Source: an uncultured delta proteobacterium (GTDB lineage: Bacteria; Desulfobacterota; Syntrophorhabdia; Syntrophorhabdales; WCHB1-27). From it: DNA of 64,000 nucleotides. The notes under the pieces are model-generated. The model did no database searches and was not told the DNA's origin. It saw only the letters and a program-made list of their open reading frames with translations. Numbering within the stretch: the stretch's first letter is position 1; each line of letters starts with the position of its first letter. The stretch is from the NCBI GenBank assembly GCA_963810935.1, contig CAWEPK010000008.1, positions 608,001 through 672,000 of the forward strand. The letters run 5' to 3'. Positions 38,790 through 56,661 of this stretch are shown in pieces. A program made the position numbers and the translations under genes.

Positions 38790-41063
38790 TTGTTCGTAGC
38801 CGCAGTCCTCGCCTTTTGCGGAGGCATCTACCTGGAGGCGCTTTACGGCGCACGCCTGGCGCTCATTCTTACGGCCGCCATTATATCGATGGCGATCCTG
38901 CCGTTTGCGCTAAAATCCGCTAAGATATTCGCCCTCCTGCTCCTGGCCGGCTTCATGTTCTGCGGCGGAGCGCGGCTCGCCTTTATCGACGCACGACAAG
39001 GGGCGCCTGACGAGAACGGAGACAAACAGGTCTACGAGGGCACTGTTGTGGAAAGCTCTTCCCGCCTCAAGGTGCTCGCCCTTACCGGTCCCGACCGCCT
39101 GGCAGGGATGCGCGTAGTATTTTTCTCCGGCGTCGACCTCCCCCTCTCCCAGAACGTCAGGGTTTTCGGGACGATCAGGGCCATCGTGCCCGGTTTTCAA
39201 AACCCCGGCAGCCTCTCCTGGAAATGGGTAAAGCGGTTCGAAGGGATCTCTTACGAAGTTAAAGGCAACCTGCTCTCATCGGCGCCGGGCAGGGACCCCG
39301 TTGCATCGCTCCGGCGCTACTTCAAGGAAAACATAGAGAGATCGGGAGCGCAGAGCACCGAAATACTCAAGGCGCTGACCATAGGCGACAGGACCGCCGT
39401 CACAACTGCGCAGAATGAATTATTCCTCCACACGGGCACGTCGCATATCCTCGCCATCTCGGGCTTCAATGTAGGCATCATATCGGGATTTTTCTTTTTC
39501 CTCGCAAGGGCGGGCTTCCGGCTGATAAGACGCTTCCGCATGTCCGGGAGGGACCGGAGATATGCCGCCCTAATCACGATACCCTTCCCCTTCGTTTTCA
39601 TGCTCGTGGCAGGCGCCGGTGTTTCCGTGATCCGGGCGGCGATCATGATCGCAGTCTTCATGCTCGCCGTCTTCATGGAGCGCGAAAAGGACTTTTACAA
39701 TACCGCGGCCCTGGCTGCCCTCGTCATTCTGCTCGTTTACCCCCATTCGCTCATGACGCCCTCCTTCCAGCTTACCTTCCTGAGCCTTCTCTTTATCGTT
39801 ATGGTCATGCGAAGGCTTATGCCGTTCCTGGTCCGTATAAAGAACAGGGTCGCCCTCTGGTCCCTCTCGACCGTCCTATCTACGGCGGCCGCCACGCTCG
39901 GCACGGCCCCGATAGTGCTCTACTATTTTTATGGGATCAACCCATTCTCCATACTGCACAACCTCGTGACGGTACCGCTCATGGGCGTTTGCGCCACCGT
40001 GCTCGGCCTCGTCGGCATGATTACGCCATACGGATGGCCCCTGCTCCTTCCGGCAGGGAAGATCGCCGGGATAAACCTTGCCCTGCTTCACCGGCTCGAT
40101 TTCGGATACCTTTACCCGCTTATAAGACCCACGCTTTCGGAGATGGCCCTTTATTACGCGATCCTCATCGCCCTCATCCATCTGCATAAACGGTTCGTGC
40201 CCGCTCTCCTTCTCTGCGTCCTGGTCCCCCTATCGGCCCTCCAGGCTTACGCGGACTATCGGGAGCGGTTCAACACCGACCTCGGCATCTTCTTTATCGA
40301 CGTAGGCCAGGGGAATGCAGCGCTGATAGAAGGACCGGGGGGCTTCAGGGCCTTAGTCGACGGCGGCGGCTTCCCCGATTCCGATTTCGATATGGGCAGG
40401 CAGGTGATAACACCCTTTCTGCTTTACCGGAAGATACGGACCGTCGATTACGTCATCAATACGCACCCGCACGCGGACCACATAGGCGGACTTGCGTACG
40501 TGATGCGCAATTTCAATGTCTCCCGGCTCGTCGCGGGCGGCCTTTATCCCCTGGAGCGGAAATCGCGCGATCTGATCGAGGCCGCTCGTTCCAGGGGAGT
40601 GCAGTGCCTTGTATGGAAAAAGGGAGACGCCATAACGACCGGCGCTTTTACGATAGACGTGCTCCATCCGGACGGCCCCGTCTTATGGGACGACCCGAAT
40701 AACAGCGCCCTGGTGCTGAAAATCCGTTACGGGCAGACCTCGTTCCTGCTGCCCGCAGATATAGGAAGCGACGTGGAGAAATGGATGGTGGCGTCCGGCC
40801 TCCCCTTAAGGTCCGACGTCCTGGAGGTCCCGCATCACGGCAGCGCCAATTCGAGCAGCTTTGCGTTCATTGCCGCAGTCAGGCCGACGCTCGCAGTAGT
40901 CAGCGCCCGCCCCGGCCGGATACTCCGCCTGCCGAGCCCTGCGGCGCTCAGCCGGTACAAGGCCCTTTCGATACCCGTCTTGCAGACGGACATGCAGGGC
41001 TGCGTCGAGGTCCGTACCGACGGCCGCCGCATCACGTGGCGGACGTACGGGGAGAAATGGTAA
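38790..41063 (+). CDS. comEC: DNA internalization competence protein ComEC/Rec2
   Basis: HILAISGFNV, SFQL, DVGQG, THPHADH, PHHGS. Confidence 0.93.
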   Translation: MFVAAVLAFCGGIYLEALYGARLALILTAAIISMAILPFALKSAKIFALLLLAGFMFCGGARLAFIDARQGAPDENGDKQVYEGTVVESSSRLKVLALTGPDRLAGMRVVFFSGVDLPLSQNVRVFGTIRAIVPGFQNPGSLSWKWVKRFEGISYEVKGNLLSSAPGRDPVASLRRYFKENIERSGAQSTEILKALTIGDRTAVTTAQNELFLHTGTSHILAISGFNVGIISGFFFFLARAGFRLIRRFRMSGRDRRYAALITIPFPFVFMLVAGAGVSVIRAAIMIAVFMLAVFMEREKDFYNTAALAALVILLVYPHSLMTPSFQLTFLSLLFIVMVMRRLMPFLVRIKNRVALWSLSTVLSTAAATLGTAPIVLYYFYGINPFSILHNLVTVPLMGVCATVLGLVGMITPYGWPLLLPAGKIAGINLALLHRLDFGYLYPLIRPTLSEMALYYAILIALIHLHKRFVPALLLCVLVPLSALQAYADYRERFNTDLGIFFIDVGQGNAALIEGPGGFRALVDGGGFPDSDFDMGRQVITPFLLYRKIRTVDYVINTHPHADHIGGLAYVMRNFNVSRLVAGGLYPLERKSRDLIEAARSRGVQCLVWKKGDAITTGAFTIDVLHPDGPVLWDDPNNSALVLKIRYGQTSFLLPADIGSDVEKWMVASGLPLRSDVLEVPHHGSANSSSFAFIAAVRPTLAVVSARPGRILRLPSPAALSRYKALSIPVLQTDMQGCVEVRTDGRRITWRTYGEKW

Positions 41064-43397: not shown

Positions 43398-44533
43398 TTA
43401 GGAACCATTGAAGGCCACGGATTCAAACAGTCCGTCGGGAGCTTTTCGCGTCAGAACAAGAACATGGCCAAAGCCAAGCGTTCCATGAGTGGCCCAGCAA
43501 TACTCGAAAAGAAGGATATCTTCAATCCCGTCGCCGTTGAAATCTGCTCGTGCAACTTCGATGAGTTGGTGTCCCATGCCTTCAGGCTCAGCGACCTGTA
43601 GAAGGTTTTGGCGCAGTTTAGTAATCACGATAGTGCCGTCAGATACCCTACTTTGATAAGTAGCCGTCAGGTCCTCCTCGGGAATATCTTCGCCAAGGTG
43701 TGGAAACAGCGAAAAGGGCATCAGTTCGAGGTCGACGATTCCGACTCTAGGATTAGCTATAAAGCTGACTTGAGGTGTCGTCGCAGCTTCTAGCGCTGTA
43801 AGCAAACCGCATTGATGTTCGAAGAATGTCGACATTTTGATGTCAAAGGTCGAGTAGGCGTGGAAACCGGCTTTCATTGCTTCGTTGTATTCACGGCAGG
43901 TCCGAACATGAACGTGCTCGTCCGCGTCTACTAGTTAGGGTGACTCCGTCGATGTGGTCAGTCTGGCCCATGCGAATCGGGCGGTCTCGGAGAAATTCGA
44001 TGTCAGCCTTTGCCACAGCACGTACCTCAGTTGCATCAGCAAACTTCATCCCTTCAAGGAGCGTAAATATATCTTCGGGCTGTTCTGAGTGATCTTCGAG
44101 GATTGCAGCTACTTCTGAAGCTTTCAACTCGCCACGTTCAAGGCATTGCTGAAGAAGAATCAAGGCCTTGCCTCGAATGTTTCGGTTCTCGATGCGCTTG
44201 AGATTTGCTTGCACCTCGGCTTTCTCGGTCGCAGCAATAGAAAGAAAGAACCGAGTATGTGCGGGCTCTAGAACTATTGAACCCTTCTGGAGGTTGGCCC
44301 CAGGGCGACACGGCAAGAGATTTTCGTATCCATAGATGTCAAATTCGCTGGGTAATCCGAGTTCGGCCTTCACGATTTTCAGCCTGTGCCGGGTCTTCGG
44401 CGAGGGTTTCCGGAATAACGTGGTCGATGTGAAAACTACTCACATCGAGAGGCTCTCTCGTATAAGCGCACTTCTTCTCGTGTGCCAGCCAAATGGCTTC
44501 TCGTTGAGATGCGCTGAACTTCTGGCTCGACAT
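43398..44533 (-). CDS. HNH endonuclease-domain protein (~378 aa once two apparent frameshifts are corrected)
   Basis: CAYT..HIDHVIP in one frame, NLLPC..ANLQKG in the next; three adjacent ORFs join near 44385 and 43925. Confidence 0.75.
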
Positions 44534-45073
44534 AGGACGCGTGCTCCCTGACCTGCTTATCACGTTAGGTGTTACTCTGTTACATTCAACTTTTTCACAC
44601 AACCCGCCCTTTCTCTTGCTTGGTCTTACCTATTATCATTACCGCCCGTACTCTTCAACGTCAAGAAGTATTGCTTGGGTAGCGACTTCAGGAAGTACGG
44701 TTGCCCTCCGCCTGCTTTGTCGCACTTACCTGGTACATTTTGAAAGAATTGACCCAGAATGTCCGGTTGAGTTTCTGATTGTTCTGCCCTTTCGCCGTGC
44801 TTCAAGGCGTACATCCAACTGCGAAGTTGGCAACTATCCGGTTGGGAACTATAGAAAAAGGCAGCCGAAAACTGACCTACGCTGAAAAGAAAACCCACCA
44901 ACTCAACATCAACCCGCGCCTTCGCGAAGAGCGGCAAGTATGGTTATGCAGATTTGGATGAGCGCGAGCCCTCTTTTGCGTTTGCGAGGGGGGGAGGCTC
45001 CATGCGGCCGGGGCCGCTGGAGGGGGGCGCTGAGCCCCAGGAATGTGCGCCCCAGACTTGCCGCTCTCCCTAT

Positions 45074-45398
45074 CTATCCCCGTTTTAGTTGTTGCAGCAT
45101 CCGGCGGTCGTGGAACGCCCTCCCCTCGAAGCTCTGTAGGGGCGTCACCTGCCATTCCAGGACCGGCCATAAAGGCAGGGCACGCATTATCTGGTCGAGC
45201 CTCTTCGTTGGACGCGGCGTCTATGATGAACGCTATGGCGCGCTCCGATACCGGTACCCCTCCCGCCAGTATCTTGTTCTCCTGTTGCAGCTTAGCGAGG
45301 GCTTCGAAACCGGGCAGGATGTAATCCTCCATCAACTCTATCATATCTTCGGGCACCGTCAGGGCCGGCCCTCCGCTTCCGATAACCAGGTAGTTCAT
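45074..45398 (-). CDS. Muconolactone delta-isomerase-like small protein (apparent frameshift near 45200)
   Basis: Removing one base gives ...IIDAASNEELDQIMRALPLWPVLEWQVTPL..., stop at 45074. Confidence 0.65.
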
Positions 45399-45599
45399 GA
45401 TGTGCCCTCCTGCACGGAATATACAACGCCTCCGGCCGCGTGTAAAGCGTTTACCGGCCTGAACGAACCGCGCCGGTTCTTTAGGCCCGCCATATAGCTA
45501 CCACATCGCGGGTGAATATGTTATATTGGAATCAGTTTCACGGGTGAAGGCACACCCGTCCCCGAACCGATGTTTTTTATATAAATAGAGGAGAAAGGC

Positions 45600-47072
45600 A
45601 TGAACGAACAGTATATTGAGGAAGGTCTTACCTTTGACGATCTTCTTCTTGTCCCGTCCTTCAGCCAGGTGATGCCTTTCGAGGTCGAGGTATCGACGCT
45701 CCTTACCCCCGCAATAAAGCTCAATATCCCCCTGATAAGCGCAGCCATGGATACGGTGACCGAATCGAAGACGGCCATCTGCATGGCCCAGGAAGGGGGG
45801 TTAGGCATAATCCACAGGAACATGGGCATAAAGGAGCAGGTCCAGGAAGTCGAGCAGGTGAAAAAGTCCGAAAGCGGCATGATCGTCGACCCGATAACGA
45901 TCTCGCCGGACCAGCATATCAAGGACGCCCTCGACTTGATGGCGCGCTACCGCATCTCGGGCATCCCCGTCACGAAGGGCAGGAAGCTGGTAGGCATTAT
46001 AACCAACAGGGACCTCAGGTTCGAGACGAACCTGGAGCAGAAGGTCTCCGATGTTATGACCAAGGATAACCTCGTCACAGTGGACGAGACCAAGGGGACC
46101 AGCCTTGAAGAATCGAAAAAAATACTCCACGAGCACAGGATAGAGAAGCTCCTGGTGGTCGATTCCGAGTACAACCTGAAGGGCCTTATTACGATAAAGG
46201 ACATCGAAAAGGTCATAAAATACCCTTCCGCCTGCAAGGATTCCTTGGGAAGGCTGCGGGTGGGGGCGGCGGTCGGCGTCGGCCCGGACAGGGACGCCAG
46301 GGTCGATGCCCTGGCTAAGGCCGGCTGTGATGTCATCATCATCGACACGGCCCACGGCCATTCGAAGAACGTTATCGATTCCGTGACCGATATCAGAAGG
46401 AATTTCAAGAACATACAGTTAGTCGCAGGCAACGTGGCCACTGAAGACGGGTGCCGGGCTCTGATCGAAGCGGGCTGCGACGCAGTGAAGGTGGGCGTAG
46501 GGCCGGGCTCCATCTGCACCACGAGGATCGTTGCAGGCGTAGGAGTGCCCCAGATTACGGCCATCATGGAGGTGACCAAGGCAGCCCGGAAAAAGGGCGT
46601 GCCGGTCATCGCAGACGGAGGCGTCAAGTACTCGGGCGACGTGGCGAAGGCGATAGCGGCCGGGGGCGACGTAGTCATGATAGGCAACCTCTTTGCAGGC
46701 ACGGACGAGACCCCCGGCGAGATGGTGCTCTACCAGGGTCGCACATACAAGATGTACCGGGGCATGGGGTCGCTCGACGCCATGAAAGAGGGCCGGACGA
46801 AGGACCGTTATTCGATCGCCGAGAACGAAGTAGAATCAAAGATCGTACCCGAGGGCATAGAAGGGCGCGTGCCTTACAGGGGGTCGCTTTCCTTCACCCT
46901 CCACCAGCTCATAGGCGGCCTGAGGGCCGGCATGGGGTATCTGGGCTGCCACAGCCTCGAAGAGTTGCATAAGAACGCCAGGTTCCTACGGATAACGAAC
47001 GCAGGTCTGAGAGAAAGCCACGTCCATGACGTGATGATAACCAAAGAGGCGCCCAACTACAGGATCGAGTAA
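45600..47072 (+). CDS. guaB: IMP dehydrogenase
   Basis: [20 protein letters not shown] pair, [15 protein letters not shown]. Confidence 0.98.
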
Positions 47073-47088
47073 GGGATAAGGCCCGCCA

Positions 47089-48642
47089 ATGACCTACGGC
47101 GACTACCATCAGGAAATAGTAATCATCCTCGACTTCGGCTCGCAGTACACGCAGCTTATTGCAAGGCGCGTGCGCGAGTTGGGCGTTTACTGCGAGATCG
47201 TGCCTTTCAACACGAGCATAGAAAAGATAAGGTCTGCCAAACCCGTCGGGATTATACTTTCGGGCGGCCCCAGGAGCGTCAACGAAGAGGACGCGCCTAT
47301 CTGCGACGAGGCTGTTTTCCGCCTGGGCGCGCCCCTGCTCGGCATCTGCTACGGAATACAACTGATCGCCAAAATGCACGGCGGCGAGGTCCAGAGGTCG
47401 GAAAAGAGGGAATACGGCCGCGCCCACATTTACAGGGACGGCTCAAGTCCGCTCCTCGACGGCATCGAGGACGAGGACACCATCTGGATGAGCCACGGGG
47501 ACGCGATCATGCGGATGCCCCCCGGCTATACCGCCCTGGCCCACTCCGAGAACTCGCCGTATGCGGCCATCGGCAACGAAGCCGCGCAGGTCTACGGAGT
47601 CCAGTTCCACCCCGAGGTGCACCATACGCCGAAGGGGAAGGTCATACTGAAGAATTTTCTTTATACGATCTGCAAGGCGAAGGGGTTATTCTCCGCCGCC
47701 TCGTTCATAGAGATGACCACCCGGAAGATAAGGGAGGAAGTGGACGGCGGGAAGGTCGTCTGCGCGCTTTCGGGCGGCGTCGATTCATCGGTCGTAGCCA
47801 CCCTCCTCCATAAGGCGATAGGCGATAAGCTCACCTGTGTATTCGTAAATAACGGCGTCCTGAGGAAGAACGAAGGGCAGGAGGTGCTCGACTTATTCAA
47901 GGACCGCCTGCACCTGAACCTCAAATACGTGGACAGCTCGGACAGGTTCCTCGCGGCCCTCAAAGGCGTGAGAGACCCCGAAAGAAAGCGGAAGATCATA
48001 GGCAGGCTTTTCATAAAGGTCTTTGAAGAAGAGGCCCGCTCCTTAGGCGATGTGCGATACCTGGCGCAGGGGACACTCTACCCGGACGTCATCGAAAGCG
48101 TCTCCTTTAAAGGGCCCTCCGCGACCATCAAGAGCCACCATAACGTCGGCGGCCTTCCCAAGCGGATGCATCTCAAGCTCATAGAGCCGCTGCGCGAGCT
48201 GTTCAAGGACGAGGTGCGCGTCGTCGGCCGTGAGCTGGGCCTGCCCCCATACGTCGTGCAGAGGCAGCCCTTCCCCGGTCCCGGCCTGGCCATACGCATG
48301 ATCGGCGACGTGACGGCCGAAAGGGTCGCCATGCTCCAGGAGGCGGACCACATCATTCGTGACGAAATCGAAAGGAAGGCGGATTTCGGCCACGTATGGC
48401 AGTCTTTCGCCATACTGATCCCCATCAAGACGGTCGGCGTCATGGGGGACGAGCGTACATACGCGAACGTGGTAGCCCTGCGCGCTGTCGAGAGCCAGGA
48501 CGGCATGACGGCCGACTGGGCAAGGTTGCCATATGAAGTGCTCGACCTTATCTCCCGCCGCATTATCAACGAGGTCCCCGGCGTCAACCGGGTAGTCCTC
48601 GACATATCCTCCAAGCCGCCTAGCACTATAGAGTGGGAGTAG
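47089..48642 (+). CDS. guaA: GMP synthase
   Basis: [34 protein letters not shown]. Confidence 0.98.
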
Positions 48643-52080: not shown

Positions 52081-53039
52081 ATGAGGCGATATTATCTCGA
52101 TTTCGAGAAGAAGCTGGAACCGCTGGAACGCAGGATAGAAGAGGTAAGGAAGTTCCACGATGCCAAGGACCCGCACTACGCAAGGGATCTAGACCAGCTT
52201 GAGAAGCGGATACTGAAGGCGGAGCAGGAGATATACAGCAACCTGAGCAATTGGCAGCGGTGCCAGCTTTCCCGCCATCTGAACCGGCCCCACATGCTCG
52301 ACTACATAGGCAAACTGTTCACGGATTTCGTAGAGCTCCACGGAGACAGGAGATTTAGGGACGACCCGGCTGTCGTGGCAGGGTTTGCCCGCTTTAACGG
52401 CACGGCCGTAGCTGTGGTTGGACACCAGAAAGGCAACAACGTCGGCGAGATGGCGGAGCGCAATTTCGGTATGGCCAACCCTGAAGGTTACCGGAAATCG
52501 ATGCGGATCATGGAGCTTGCCGAACGATGGCGCAAGCCGCTTCTGACCTTCATCGACACACCCGGCGCCTTCCCCGGCGTAGGGGCCGAGGAACGGGGCC
52601 AGGCCGAAACCATCGCCGCGAGCATCGAGTTTATGTTCTCCCTCTCCGTCCCTGTGATATCGGTTGTGACTGGGGAAGGCGGCAGCGGCGGGGCGCTTGC
52701 GATCGGCGTGGGCAACAGGATCCTCATGATGGAGAACGCGATTTATGCGGTCATCTCACCCGAAGGCTGCGCCGCGATCCTCTGGAGAGACGGCTCCAAG
52801 GGCCCGCTTGCGGCGGACGTGCTCAAGCCGACCGCCCAGGACTTATTTTCACTAGGGTAATAGATGAAATAATACCGGAGCCTTTCGGGGGCGCTCACAG
52901 GGACTGGGAAGCGACTTTCCAGACTGCGGCCGCCGTCATCGAAAGACACCTTCGGGAGCTGCTCGCAATCCCCGGCGAAGAACTCAGGAAACAGCGCTAC
53001 ACCAAATTCAGGAACATGGGGATATTCGAAGAAAGGTAA
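52081..53039 (+). CDS. accA: Acetyl-CoA carboxylase carboxyltransferase alpha (apparent frameshift near 52855)
   Basis: ELHGDR, DTPGAFPG, GEGGSGGA, then IDEIIPEPFGGAH in a second frame. Confidence 0.95.
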
Positions 53040-53095
53040 CGGCAATTATTGGGGCTCCCGTCGCCCCCTCATGAAAAGGAAGAGGCATTTTTGCA

Positions 53096-53620
53096 TTATT
53101 GGGGCTCGCGTCGCTCGCCGCCGCCGACCGCTGCAAGCAGACGCGCAAGTCTCTCCTTTTCGGCCTTCACCTCGTTTATCCTGACCCTCGTGATCTGCTC
53201 TTTGAATTCCATGTAAAGGTCGAACGCCTCCATCATCGCCTCGTCGAGCCTGGCTTCAATCACGCGAAGGGCGCCGGAATCCTCCGCCGATGCGGACCCG
53301 TCCGGCAGCTCTCTGCGGATTTCATCCTTCAAGAGGGGAATAAACGAAAGGGCCTTCGATGGAGGGACGTCCTGCACGGCCAGGATGCGTACGGCATCCC
53401 TCATGGATTCTTTTGTCTCCTTCCCCTCGCGGCCTCCATCGAAAAGATCATTCAGGAGGCGATCTAATGCCTCCGTAAGCGTATGGCCGACGGGGTTCTG
53501 AAAGCGGTCCTGCCCAGCCGACGCCGGCGCACAACTCCACGCCGGACAAACGGCCGCGAAGGCAGCGAGACACCGTTCCCGTATCACCCTGCCCCTCTTG
53601 CGCAGCACCTCTTTCAGCAC
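53096..53620 (-). CDS. dsrT: DsrT-like (RsbRD N-terminal domain) protein
   Basis: DRFQNPVGHTL, VRILAVQDVPPSKALSFI, AFDLYM..KEQI..VRINE; lies downstream of dsrB; GTG start at 53620. Confidence 0.8.
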   Translation of the reverse strand: MLKEVLRKRGRVIRERCLAAFAAVCPAWSCAPASAGQDRFQNPVGHTLTEALDRLLNDLFDGGREGKETKESMRDAVRILAVQDVPPSKALSFIPLLKDEIRRELPDGSASAEDSGALRVIEARLDEAMMEAFDLYMEFKEQITRVRINEVKAEKERLARLLAAVGGGERREPQ

Positions 53621-53634
53621 AACAGCCTCAGCCC

Positions 53635-53688
53635 CTACCACTTAAACTGCGTAGTAGTCCTATAAGTCTCCACCGCGTGTGTAAAGTC
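53635..53688 (-). pseudogene. dsrB: Second copy of the dsrB 3' end ([17 protein letters not shown])
   Basis: 48/54 nt identical to 54426-54479; all 6 differences are synonymous third positions. Confidence 0.92.
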
Positions 53689-53691
53689 GGC

Positions 53692-54333
53692 AATCATCTA
53701 CCCCCGGCAAAGCCGGGGGTTTGTTAAAACCGTGAACCGCTCAAAGCGGTTAGTTGTGCGTTAGCTGCCTAAAGGCAGCTATTTGTCCTTCTCAAACAGT
53801 TTCATCTGGTCGAGCCTTCGATCTGTCTCTTCCTGGGCTTGGATGTACGCTCGTATGGCTTGCTCGTCCAACCCTATGGTCGATACGCAATAACCTCTGG
53901 CCCAAAAGCTCTGACCTACGAAGTTGCGTCTCCTGCCGCTCATCCGGGCTATGTAGATCGCGCTCTTCCCTTTGATAAAGCCTACCACCTGGGCAACGGC
54001 ATACTTTGGGGGAACCGAGAGCAACACGTGGACGTGGTCCACTACCAGTTTCCCCTCCAGCACCTCGCTCTCCTTCTGTCGCGCCACTCCTTGATGATGG
54101 GCCCTATCTCCTTCCTGAGCTTTCCGTAGAGCACCTTTTTCCGGTACTTCGGAATCCACACCACATGATACTTGCAATCCCATACCGTATGACATAAGCT
54201 CTGAATATCTTCCACCGAAAGCCTCCTTAACTCTGCCGACCGCCTAAACGGTTCACGGATACAGGAGGCTTTCCTATATATTCCCGGAATTGTCAAACTC
54301 CGGGATTCCCCCGGCAGAGCCGGGGGTTTACCA
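53692..54333 (-). mobile_element. IS200/IS605-family element (tnpA only)
   Basis: Subterminal hairpins CCCCCGGC-AAA/AGA-GCCGGGGG at ~53701-53719 and ~54308-54326; RBS-sequestering inverted repeat 54218-54227/54263-54272; exact ends approximate. Confidence 0.9.
53779..54215 (-). pseudogene. tnpA: IS200 Y1 transposase with 1-nt frameshift near 54087
   Basis: CKYHVVWIPKYRKK in one frame; DHVH, FIKGKSA, FWARGY, YIQAQ in the next; 437 nt from GTG. May be a sequencing error. Confidence 0.85.
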
Positions 54334-54342
54334 GAATGAAAT

Positions 54343-54396
54343 TACCGGGGCTATCGTCGCCCCCTCCAGCGGCGAAGCCGCCGGAGCCACCCCCTC
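54343..54396 (-). repeat. Repeat family 1 copy (related copies at ~21395-21447, 24950-25027, 44986-45040, 53046-53070, 53096-53120)
   Basis: GAGGGGGTGG-CTCCGGCGGC-TTC-GCCGCTGGAG-GGGGCGACGATAGCCCCGGTAA on minus strand. Confidence 0.75.
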
Positions 54397-54425
54397 ATAA
54401 AAAGGAAGAAAGTGCATCATTCCCC

Positions 54426-55490
54426 CTACCACTTAAACTGCGTGGTAGTCCTGTAAGTCTCCACTGCATGGGTGAAGTCGTCTATGTGCTGCTCGGTGAA
54501 GGGTATCTCGGTCCTTTTGAAGAAGGCCTCCCAGCCTATCCTCTCGATCCACTCGCCCAGTCTCTCGGTCGGCCTGGCGGATGATGCATAGACATCGACT
54601 ATCCTCTTGAGGACGTCCACTACCTCGGGCCACCTGGGAGGGTTATTGGGCAGGTAGGGGACTACCATGCGGGAGAACATCGGGGGCTTTCTGGCATTGG
54701 GCACCTTGCCCCCTGCGTAAATGGCGACACCGTCCGTATCCCCGTCGGCAAGCGGCATGGCCGGGCAGACGGTAAAGCAGTTGGCGCAGTACATGCAGAG
54801 GTCCTCGCGGACAACCACGCTCTTTACGTCAGCATCCGGGTGCCTTCTTATCGCCCCTGTGGGACAGGACTGTATGGTTGTAGGTATCTCGCACTGGGCG
54901 AGCACCCTCTCATGGTCGGGCCGGGGGGGCTTCGTATGTACGCCCACTATGGCAAGGTCGGAGCAGTGGACCGCACCGCACATGTTGATGCAGCAGGCAA
55001 GGGATATCCTTAAGTGGTTCGGGAGCTTCATCTCGGTGAACTGGTCGTAGAAGGCGTCCATGACGGCTTTTACTATGCCTGATGCGTCGGTTGCCGCGCT
55101 GTGGCAGTGGATCCACCCCTGGGTGTGGACTATGTTAGAGATGCACTTGCCCGTCCCGCCTATGGGGAGGCCTAGCTTATGGAGGTCTGCTATGATAGGC
55201 TCCACCTTTGCCTTGTCCGGGGTCATGAACTCTATGTTGTGGCGGCTGGTGAACCGAAGATGGCCGTTGCAGTGCTTATCGGCCACATCGCAGAGGTCCC
55301 TTATGAAGTCTATAGAGACGAGCCTGGGGGAGCCTGCACGGATGGAGTAGACCTCTTGGCCTGATTCCGAGACATGGCGGAGGACGCCCGGCTTTACGAT
55401 CTCGTGGTACTTCCATTTGCCGTAGTTGTCCTTGATCACGTCGGGGAGCATCGTTTTGAAGTCGGGGGGTCCTATATCGGTCTTTCTCAT
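54426..55490 (-). CDS. dsrB: Dissimilatory sulfite reductase beta subunit
   Basis: [68 protein letters not shown]. Confidence 0.96.
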
Positions 55491-55500
55491 GGTTGTCTCC

Positions 55501-56661
55501 TTATTTGAAGAACACATAGGGATTGGCTCTCGGTTTATTGACCATCTGGGGCACGGGGGGAAGGTCGACCGCCTTCAGGAACTCCTTCAGGCCGATCCTC
55601 TGTATGGTCTCGGCTACCCTCTCGCGCGTCCTTCCGTGCTCGTCCCACCAGTCCCATATCTTGGCAAGGAGGTCCTTTACTTCCGTATAGGGGGGTTTTA
55701 TCTCCATGAAGGGGACAAGCACCCAGGAGAGGTTGGCGCCTTTTAAGATAGGGGCCTTGCCGCCTATCAGGATGGTTGCCCCTTTGACTATGCCGGGCCT
55801 TAGGGCCTTCGGCATGGTGTTTATGCAGTGCATGCAGCGGACGCAGTCCTCAGGGATGAGCTTTAAGGTAGTACCGTCCCAGTCAAGGGCCTCGGTGGGG
55901 CACTTGCGGACTACGAGGGAGTCTATGTCCAGACCATCCTTCACATAGGTCCTTACCCCTTCCTGGTCTATACGGAGAGAGTCGTGCCAGGCGCCTATGA
56001 TCGTGAAGTCCGCCCTTGCTATGGCGGCAACGCAGTCGTTGGGGCAGCCGGACGCCTTGATCTTGAACTTATAGGGCCAGCGGGGGCGGTGTATCTCGTC
56101 CTGGTAGGTCATGGTGAGGTCGTAGATAAGGTCTAAGGTGTCGATATTGGCATACTCGCACCTGGCCTGGCCTATGCAGCCAGCGGGGGTGCGAAGCGCG
56201 GAGCCGGAGCCGCCCAGGTCGAAGCCTGCTTCGGTCAGCTCGTCGAAGCAGGGCTGGAGGTTCTCCGTGGTGGTGCCCAGGAGGATGACGTCCCCTGTGG
56301 AGCCGTGGAAGTTGGTCATGCCGCTTCCGTACTTCTCCCATATGTCGCAGATCTTCCGGAGGGCGTCCGTTGTGTAGAACCAGCCTGCGGGCTGGTTGAT
56401 CCGCATGGTGTGGAAGGCAGCGGCGAATGGGAAGTCATCGGGCGCATCGCAGTACCTGCCTATTACGCCTCCCCCGTAGCCTGTAACCCCCACTATGCCT
56501 CCATGCTTCCAGTGGGTTACCCGGTCATGATAGGAGCGCTCCTGGATCTTAAGGAGATCTTTTGCCGCGGGGTTCTTCTTTGCAGCCCGCTTCATCTCCT
56601 TAACAAAGCTCGGCCATGGTCCCTTCTCGAGGTCGTCGAGCAGGGGGGTGTCGTCGGTCAT
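55501..56661 (-). CDS. dsrA: Dissimilatory sulfite reductase alpha subunit
   Basis: [33 protein letters not shown], siroheme motif CIGQARC...CPNDC, CVRCMHC. Confidence 0.97.

Follow-up and report, generated by a model that had tools for sequence, protein, structure and literature searches.

In attP-borne gene-end replacement, as known for e14 and phage 21 at icd and for tRNA att sites, the incoming end restores the gene. A different arrangement is found in the MIRU, in the available part of its description a short dispersed repeat with a mini-ORF that is translationally coupled at the insertion site, with the expression of the neighbouring genes being kept; insertion occurs at start codons, with a -4 spacing (PMC12548453). 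The repeat described here, called R in the following, can be compared with both.

The window, the complete stretch of 64,000 nucleotides that was analysed, comes from a genome (G000) that is 93% complete with 7% contamination. On its minus strand dsrA (55501..56661; TIGR02064, 561 bits, cut-off 393) is followed by an intact dsrB (54426..55490; TIGR02066, 507 bits, cut-off 341.5), and the 3' end of the latter is present a second time. The functional tail (54426..54479), putatively the incoming copy, and the sequence at 53635-53688 encode the same 17 residues plus stop and differ at 6 of 54 nt, all six being synonymous third positions, just as the original prediction had it. A repeat search of the window returned the dsrB tails as a single 63-nt pair (87% identity, 791 nt apart), and a control with 20 window segments gave no direct repeat longer than 20 nt, just five 20-nt chance pairs at 75-85%. 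The displaced, orphan tail (53635..53689, like all features named here on the minus strand) retains its original link to the next gene: as had also been predicted, it lies close to the IS end and stops 14 nt ahead of that gene, the start of which is a GTG. The gene concerned (53096..53620, its start set by alignment to the relative G002) encodes an RsbRD_N domain (PF14361, 25.2 bits, cut-off 24.3) and is a dsrT-like gene, which we take to be dsrT. Confirmation that dsrT is the RsbRD_N gene was not found in PMC10861901 or 10.1101/197269.

Between the two tails lie R and an IS200-family element. The left and central part of R, with a 5-nt spacer, occupies 54341..54425, forms two to three hairpins and holds an ATG-started open frame (MMHFLPFYEGVAPAASPLEGATIAPV), whereas the final bases of R (53690..53692) are stranded beyond the IS, as judged by comparison with contig C10 of the same genome and with other IS copies. 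Two short degenerate R-like copies (53041..53125; repeat families D2 and D15) are located between the accA end and the dsrT end. Elsewhere the window contains a ComEC/Competence-family gene (767-aa frame, ~39375-40187; G000:C8:647375-648187) and a guaB-guaA operon (45600-48642), just ahead of which lie unclear small ORFs (44138-45497); guaA is known as an integration hot spot.

The doubled dsrB end is genuine. An 877-nt piece of a short-read contig (54133-55009) displays zero differences over the IS left end, R, the functional tail and dsrB; these contigs belong to four runs, all of a single study that may have supplied the source data of the assembly. The junction of the IS right end and the orphan tail is bridged by none of the short-read contig pieces listed, and the tail-to-tail junction or circle that excision would leave, as envisaged in the original prediction, was absent from the short-read contigs checked. 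The frameshifts at 54086 (tnpA) and 52854 (accA) are probably assembly errors, because the short-read contigs contradict both with an extra G (in four of four runs at 54086 and in three at 52854).

The 648-nt insert (~53693..54340, boundaries uncertain by 1-2 nt) encodes a Y1 HUH transposase (tnpA at ~53779-54221; NF033573 and PF01797 above cut-off) and has the subterminal hairpins (~53701-53721 and 54308-54326), the fixed tetranucleotide target and the duplication-free insertion of IS200/IS605 elements. All seven IS200-family copies in G000 stand directly after TAAT, and a target duplication is found in none. Since R terminates in this target, four of the seven insertions (C8:732k, C12:368k, C16:101k and the window) fall within an R right end; the other three are in ordinary DNA. 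The IS had been discounted beforehand as the maker of the duplicated tail, and this holds: the C10 locus and the relatives have the tails without an IS. By comparison of these loci the IS200 is a later arrival into R, and the window minus the IS reads like C10. The insertion truncates the mini-ORF of R (54328..54420 in its present state), the stop of which lies within the IS left end, yet an ATG within the IS right end is in frame with the orphan tail and opens a new frame of 20 codons (53635..53697). This in-frame ATG may be the reason why the insertion was tolerated. A role of the IS200 TnpA as mobiliser of R was considered and is unsupported: there is no match to it in G001-G003, though G002 is rich in R, and matches (many of them short or partial) occur in 9 of 22 family genomes including G000, versus an R core in 21 of 21 family relatives.

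R is a hairpin-forming repeat of ~85 nt, with 130 matches in a profile search of G000 and folding z-scores of -2.2 to -4.4 in three out of three copies. Its right end, TAATTG plus one base, is the end of the inserted unit. The R core was found in 62 of the 81 genomes of the order, the reversed-pattern control giving 1 match, and beyond the order in records titled Nitrospirota, Syntrophus and others; by record title, Syntrophorhabdus aromaticivorans UI is a cultured carrier. Conservation of the core across phyla is unusual. For 12 R loci Rfam held no match at the gathering score (best 21.4 bits, gathering 58.6). The loop letters of the small terminal hairpin, in the matches of family f4, are mostly of the GNRA type (GCAA, GTGA, GCGA, GTAA), hinting at a possible role at the RNA level. 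Subtypes B and C of R differ in their left ends, and BIME-like tandem arrays of R subtypes occur in G000 (C16:187533-187782, C17:125274-125526, C10:27185-27572) and at L229. The sole viral match places the R core in frame within a phage head protease/capsid-type gene (L228:198-2183).

The doubled-end pattern is recurrent and more general than dsrB. Counted by repeat finding on chosen loci and by reading by eye, 13 of 40 R loci in G000 (a non-blind sample: three were chosen after their flanks had been seen, and flanks of others had also been seen) show a duplication of 22-140 nt that abuts the right end of R and recurs at its left, or a tandem array, against 0 of 20 controls. Two further short bracketed cases were recognised by eye among the G000 matches listed. 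The targets include infA, ddl, an acyl-CoA dehydrogenase gene, tRNA-Arg, tRNA-Ala and the gene of a flavin oxidase, presumably of the hemG type. Empty orthologous sites were seen for infA, the acyl-CoA dehydrogenase and the hemG-like gene. Other genomes (titled Syntrophorhabdales, Syntrophaceae and deltaproteobacterium) contributed eight bracketed and two tandem cases among 41 R loci, and G002 four bracketed and two tandem cases among 20; these locus sets overlap with that of G000, and each junction was counted once. Two of 20 R loci qualify as doubled ends in the other families of the order. Outside the order a doubled gene end was found at one of the 40 loci examined (taken from 80 listed and including 3 of Syntrophorhabdus), namely efp in Syntrophus (L286). 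Most R copies have no bracketing duplication. Two more loci, L226 and L262, were examined and are not gene-end duplications.

The downstream copy always retains the original downstream context. In dsrA of G001 the tail behind R equals the tail of two R-free paralogues, and the tail before R differs at 7 of 33 nt, all of these differences being silent (one is the stop) in a dsrA that is otherwise nearly identical. In G002 the hemG-like gene has a single end, the continuation of which resembles that of the downstream copy; its functional counterpart in G000 now terminates within R. In the window the orphan tail differs from the G002 dsrB end at three sites and the functional tail at five, which is weak taken alone, and for the acyl-CoA dehydrogenase the single ends of the relatives side clearly with neither copy. 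As far as can be read from these alignments, the downstream copy is thereby shown to be the original that was displaced, and the upstream copy to be new. The view that the orphan beside dsrT is the original end was thus correct; in G002 dsrB is contiguous with dsrT.

Over all pairs read by eye there are ~49 synonymous versus 8 non-synonymous codon changes, in a tally that omits stop-for-stop swaps and two cases in which the peptides encoded by the two copies are unlike (L055 and, in its 5' part, L065); some of the silent changes span two bases. A dead copy would gather mostly non-silent changes, and therefore both copies descend from functional alleles, which extends to other genes what had been proposed for the two dsrB tails. 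Some new tails, at L055 and L150, have a different spacer and C-terminus, and some pairs are identical or differ just in the stop codon (infA, tRNA-Arg, L077, G012 dsrB). Donor-like states, with R behind a gene and no second tail, are present in G016 and twice in G001 (L033, and L142 with a degenerate R left end alone). A donor with an exact match to a new tail was not found; for the new dsrA tail of G001 the search covered the dsrA ends in 13 genomes of the family.

A second dsrAB is located on contig C10 of G000 (306033-308288) and is 98.8% identical to the window copy over 2342 nt. Downstream of it come R, the displaced tail in a third version with three silent changes and one Ala/Val, and dsrC- and dsrMK-like genes (identified by eye in the translations); an IS is absent. 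The functional tail is the same sequence in both dsrAB copies of G000, and the orphan tails differ between them. The C10 dsrB and dsrC appear frameshifted. In G002, of the same genus, dsrB runs straight into dsrT without R and represents the empty site. Three dsrAB copies are found in G001: one is empty, one has R without a second tail (L033), and one has two stacked R-tail units ahead of dsrT, with R and a doubled end also at its dsrA. Across the order a second dsrB tail is present at 4 of 30 dsrB loci (G000, G001, G012, G017), with three different junctions and with one locus lacking a motif match; G012 and G017 have the duplicated tail though one dsrB was found per genome.

The genus has two or three near-identical dsrAB copies (window 54426-56661; C10:306033-308288; L032, L033, L034), which precede different dsr genes: a dsrT-like gene, dsrC, or a small HTH gene that occupies the position of dsrD. 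A dsrD-like gene had no match in G000 with the query used. G018 likewise has several dsrAB copies, and the dsrB of one of them is partial and lies in a 583-aa frame. In the literature searched, no description of multi-copy dsrAB in this group was found.

R starts with ATG and stays open to its right end. Translation confirms eight open mini-ORFs that begin just past the new stop, cross R and continue into the displaced tail: those at dsrB of C10, G017 and G012, at dsrA of G001, at the acyl-CoA dehydrogenase and at three other genes. Seven of the eight start 0-15 nt from the upstream stop or overlap it, and the eighth starts ~35 nt away. In the family of the window organism the displaced tail is in phase with the R frame at 20 of 23 junctions, 8 of these by translation and 12 by eye (some without a clear start codon), the exceptions being L048, L058 and L096. 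The binomial chance of this outcome, calculated by hand for loci that are partly non-independent, is ~2e-7 at a null of 1/3 and ~2e-4 at 1/2, the latter allowing for a purine-A/T target preference. The Syntrophus junction L286 is out of phase, L217 is in phase with a stop inside R, and L042, L046 and L063 are in phase without a close downstream gene. At L150 an ATGA-coupled gene pair has been kept through two stacked units. At ddl, R is antisense, and the old start reads through R to a stop that overlaps the new TTG start. In-frame junctions are putatively favoured, the most likely cause being a restart of ribosomes on the R ATG.

Starting from the layout, polarity and phase seen at the loci, we infer transfer, an enzyme and translation. 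On balance we lean towards the reading that R is a non-autonomous, MIRU-like relay repeat, predicted to be mobile and translated, that would move with host gene ends between alleles. The working unit would consist of a host gene end (X), a short spacer and R. A filled locus has the order gene with new X, stop, spacer, R, old X and downstream gene, where X measures ~15-110 nt and belongs to many unrelated genes. The new X would come from another allele of the gene that already had R downstream of it; the source may be a paralogue (e.g. one of the further dsrAB copies) or the same gene in a related strain or species. Entry may proceed by homologous pairing in X or upstream and a joining event at the right end of R, the latter probably via single-stranded DNA and an HUH-type or similar nuclease. 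Inside one locus the same reaction would produce identical tails and tandem arrays. On leaving the gene, ribosomes would restart at the ATG of R and translate as far as the old stop, and the coupling to dsrT or dsrC would thereby be kept, as with MIRUs. Since empty, donor-like, filled and stacked states are all visible, together with a polarity and a frame rule, the mechanism is testable.

RVT_1, GIY-YIG and RAYT searches, and inspection of the ORFs in four out of eight R-flanked regions, gave no candidate for the mobilising enzyme, in genomes that are incomplete and in which a diverged enzyme could escape (one Y1 protein, overlooked by the PF01797 search at genome level, was later found by protein scan). 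RVT_1 (PF00078) has no match in the 93% complete G000, and the single GIY-YIG match in that genome is UvrC-sized, with no Ssn-sized protein found. R was not detected near RAYT genes, neither in 6 kb around the RAYT-like gene of G000 (0 matches) nor, as an exact core, at 30 family RAYT-like loci (0 of 30). The RAYT-like Y1 protein of G000 (317 aa, with a C-terminal HTH; L084:2500-5977, C8 ~712-715 kb) is encoded beside an RHS-repeat-type gene, with no R nearby. On C18, what appears by eye to be an IS110-family-like transposase gene (L204:826-1749) is flanked by R copies.

The main rival explanation holds that R inserts in place with a long and variable target duplication, that the copies later diverge silently by recombination or gene conversion with R-free alleles, and that nothing travels with R. 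The several pairs that are identical or differ in the stop alone (infA, tRNA-Arg, L077, G012 dsrB) are in line with this, the tandem arrays reveal local copying, and the dsrAB paralogues are clearly homogenised. We nevertheless consider it unlikely as the full account: conversion from a long upstream homology should keep the upstream tail alike, whereas in G001 the dsrA tail that differs (7 of 33 nt) is the new one, beside a gene that has been homogenised, and the old tail has stayed as it was; moreover, new tails can carry a different spacer and C-terminus (L055, L150). Identical pairs and tandem arrays do show copying in place, and both routes may therefore operate.

For the window locus only, it can also be argued that a dsrAB-R block arriving from another paralogue or strain took the place of the resident dsrAB, of which the tail survived together with dsrT, R being incidental. 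The original prediction offered such an allele replacement as its second idea, and the functional tail common to both dsrAB copies beside different orphan tails agrees with it, as does G001 with its three near-identical dsrAB copies before dsrT, dsrC and a dsrD-like gene. Replacement is not the general cause, because the layout is also seen at infA, tRNAs, ddl and further genes, as well as in genomes in which one dsrB was found (G012, G017). Nor was there a sharp break in divergence of the kind that the prediction proposed to look for along dsrB: compared by eye, the dsrAB of G000 and G002 differ at sites scattered over their length (in dsrB, 1-7 per 100 columns). As the sole explanation allele replacement is thus contradicted by other loci and seems improbable; as a contributor at the window locus it is likely, and it probably helped to spread the unit among the near-identical dsrAB paralogues of the genus.

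The first idea of the prediction, an incoming piece that supplies a replacement tail, survives in its logic, with the piece being the ~85-nt R plus a tail, lacking integrase and cargo and entering many unrelated genes. Taken literally, as attL and attR sites remaining from an integrative element that had entered at the 3' end of dsrB and whose body has since disappeared, the idea is very improbable. A restored gene with a displaced tail follows the same logic, and two of the cases are tRNA 3' ends, but no locus viewed has an integrase or cargo between the tails (none among 30 dsrB loci), the junction position varies within dsrB, and the targets are unrelated genes. An assembly or binning artefact, i.e. 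a strain chimera in an error-prone assembly, could draw on the 7% contamination, the frameshift errors and the unbridged junction of the IS right end and the orphan among the contigs listed, but is likewise very improbable given the exact short-read match from the IS through R and the tail to dsrB, the recurrence of the layout in other genomes with different junctions, and silent, in-phase changes that are not expected from errors. On the whole the prediction recognised the local duplication and overlooked the second dsrAB locus, the genome-wide pattern and the in-frame mini-ORF.

Returning to R as a relay repeat that would move with gene ends, we tentatively suggest, as a possibility that we regard with some doubt, that it represents an undescribed class of minimal 'homing' element. 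Such an element would use the last codons of the left-hand gene as a targeting arm, carry gene ends between paralogues, strains and species, rewrite the C-terminus of the recipient and hide its insertion by an in-frame ribosome relay. The question addressed by these observations is how short repeats that lack a transposase spread without harming operons. If the tails come from other alleles, R would be a route for swapping protein C-termini, even those of core genes (dsrA, dsrB, infA, ddl, efp). Orphan gene tails alone are no proof of lost phages or islands.

R is strongly hairpin-forming, whereas MIRUs, to our knowledge, are without dyad symmetry. Both are dispersed short repeats with a mini-ORF (in R, predicted frames) that is co-oriented and closely coupled to the neighbours. 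In contrast to the MIRUs in the part of their description available, R joins a gene within its last 5-37 codons, supplies it with a replacement end and has its own frame fused to the displaced end. Its junctions lie inside gene ends instead of at start codons with -4 spacing, and a start codon is involved at L150 and L221 only. With att systems R shares a gene that is restored by an incoming synonymous end and an old end that is pushed downstream. Unlike these, it has no integrase, cargo or fixed site and has many unrelated targets; between the copies there is only R (plus the IS200 in the window), and dsrB has three junctions, not one crossover site.

Like the REP, BIME and REPIN sequences in the accessible parts of their descriptions (PMC3686654, PMC6006769, PMC3733652), R has many extragenic hairpin copies, forms tandem arrays and is an IS target; it also has the REP-type CGTC motif on its reverse strand. 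It differs from the REP/REPIN-RAYT systems as covered there in that no flanking RAYT was found and that its core is conserved across the order and beyond, not species-specific. Gene-end duplication is absent from the parts of these three descriptions available, the string 'duplicat' having 0 matches in PMC3733652. With PATEs and other non-autonomous elements derived from IS200/IS605, as far as their description is accessible (PMC3119063), R has in common the absence of terminal inverted repeats, near-terminal palindromes and a length too short for a transposase. By eye only, its central hairpin tip resembles the end hairpins of IS200, and its end holds TAAT. PATEs, in that same text, make no target duplication (PMC3119063), whereas R is often bracketed by a gene end of 15-110 nt, 13 of the 40 loci being bracketed or tandem. 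As regards DGRs, G000 has no PF00078 match, and the changes in the tails are at third codon positions and involve all bases, not specifically adenine.

The NTS repeats of Neisseria are, in the part of the report available, CGTC-type hairpin repeats as in R, and are acted on by the Ssn nuclease as single-stranded DNA during transformation (PMC11893778). This system could serve as a model for the cutting of R; a ComEC-family gene is present in G000 but also in 10 of 14 controls, which makes it a weak indication, and unlike in Neisseria an Ssn-sized GIY-YIG protein was not found in the genome. A description of repeat-linked gene-end swapping was not found in the literature searched, mostly open-access papers. 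R would relay ribosomes in the manner of a MIRU, restores a gene as att sites do, and resembles a REP or PATE, while departing from each of them in a defining property. It is probably a relay-type repeat of a new variety, and possibly of a new class.
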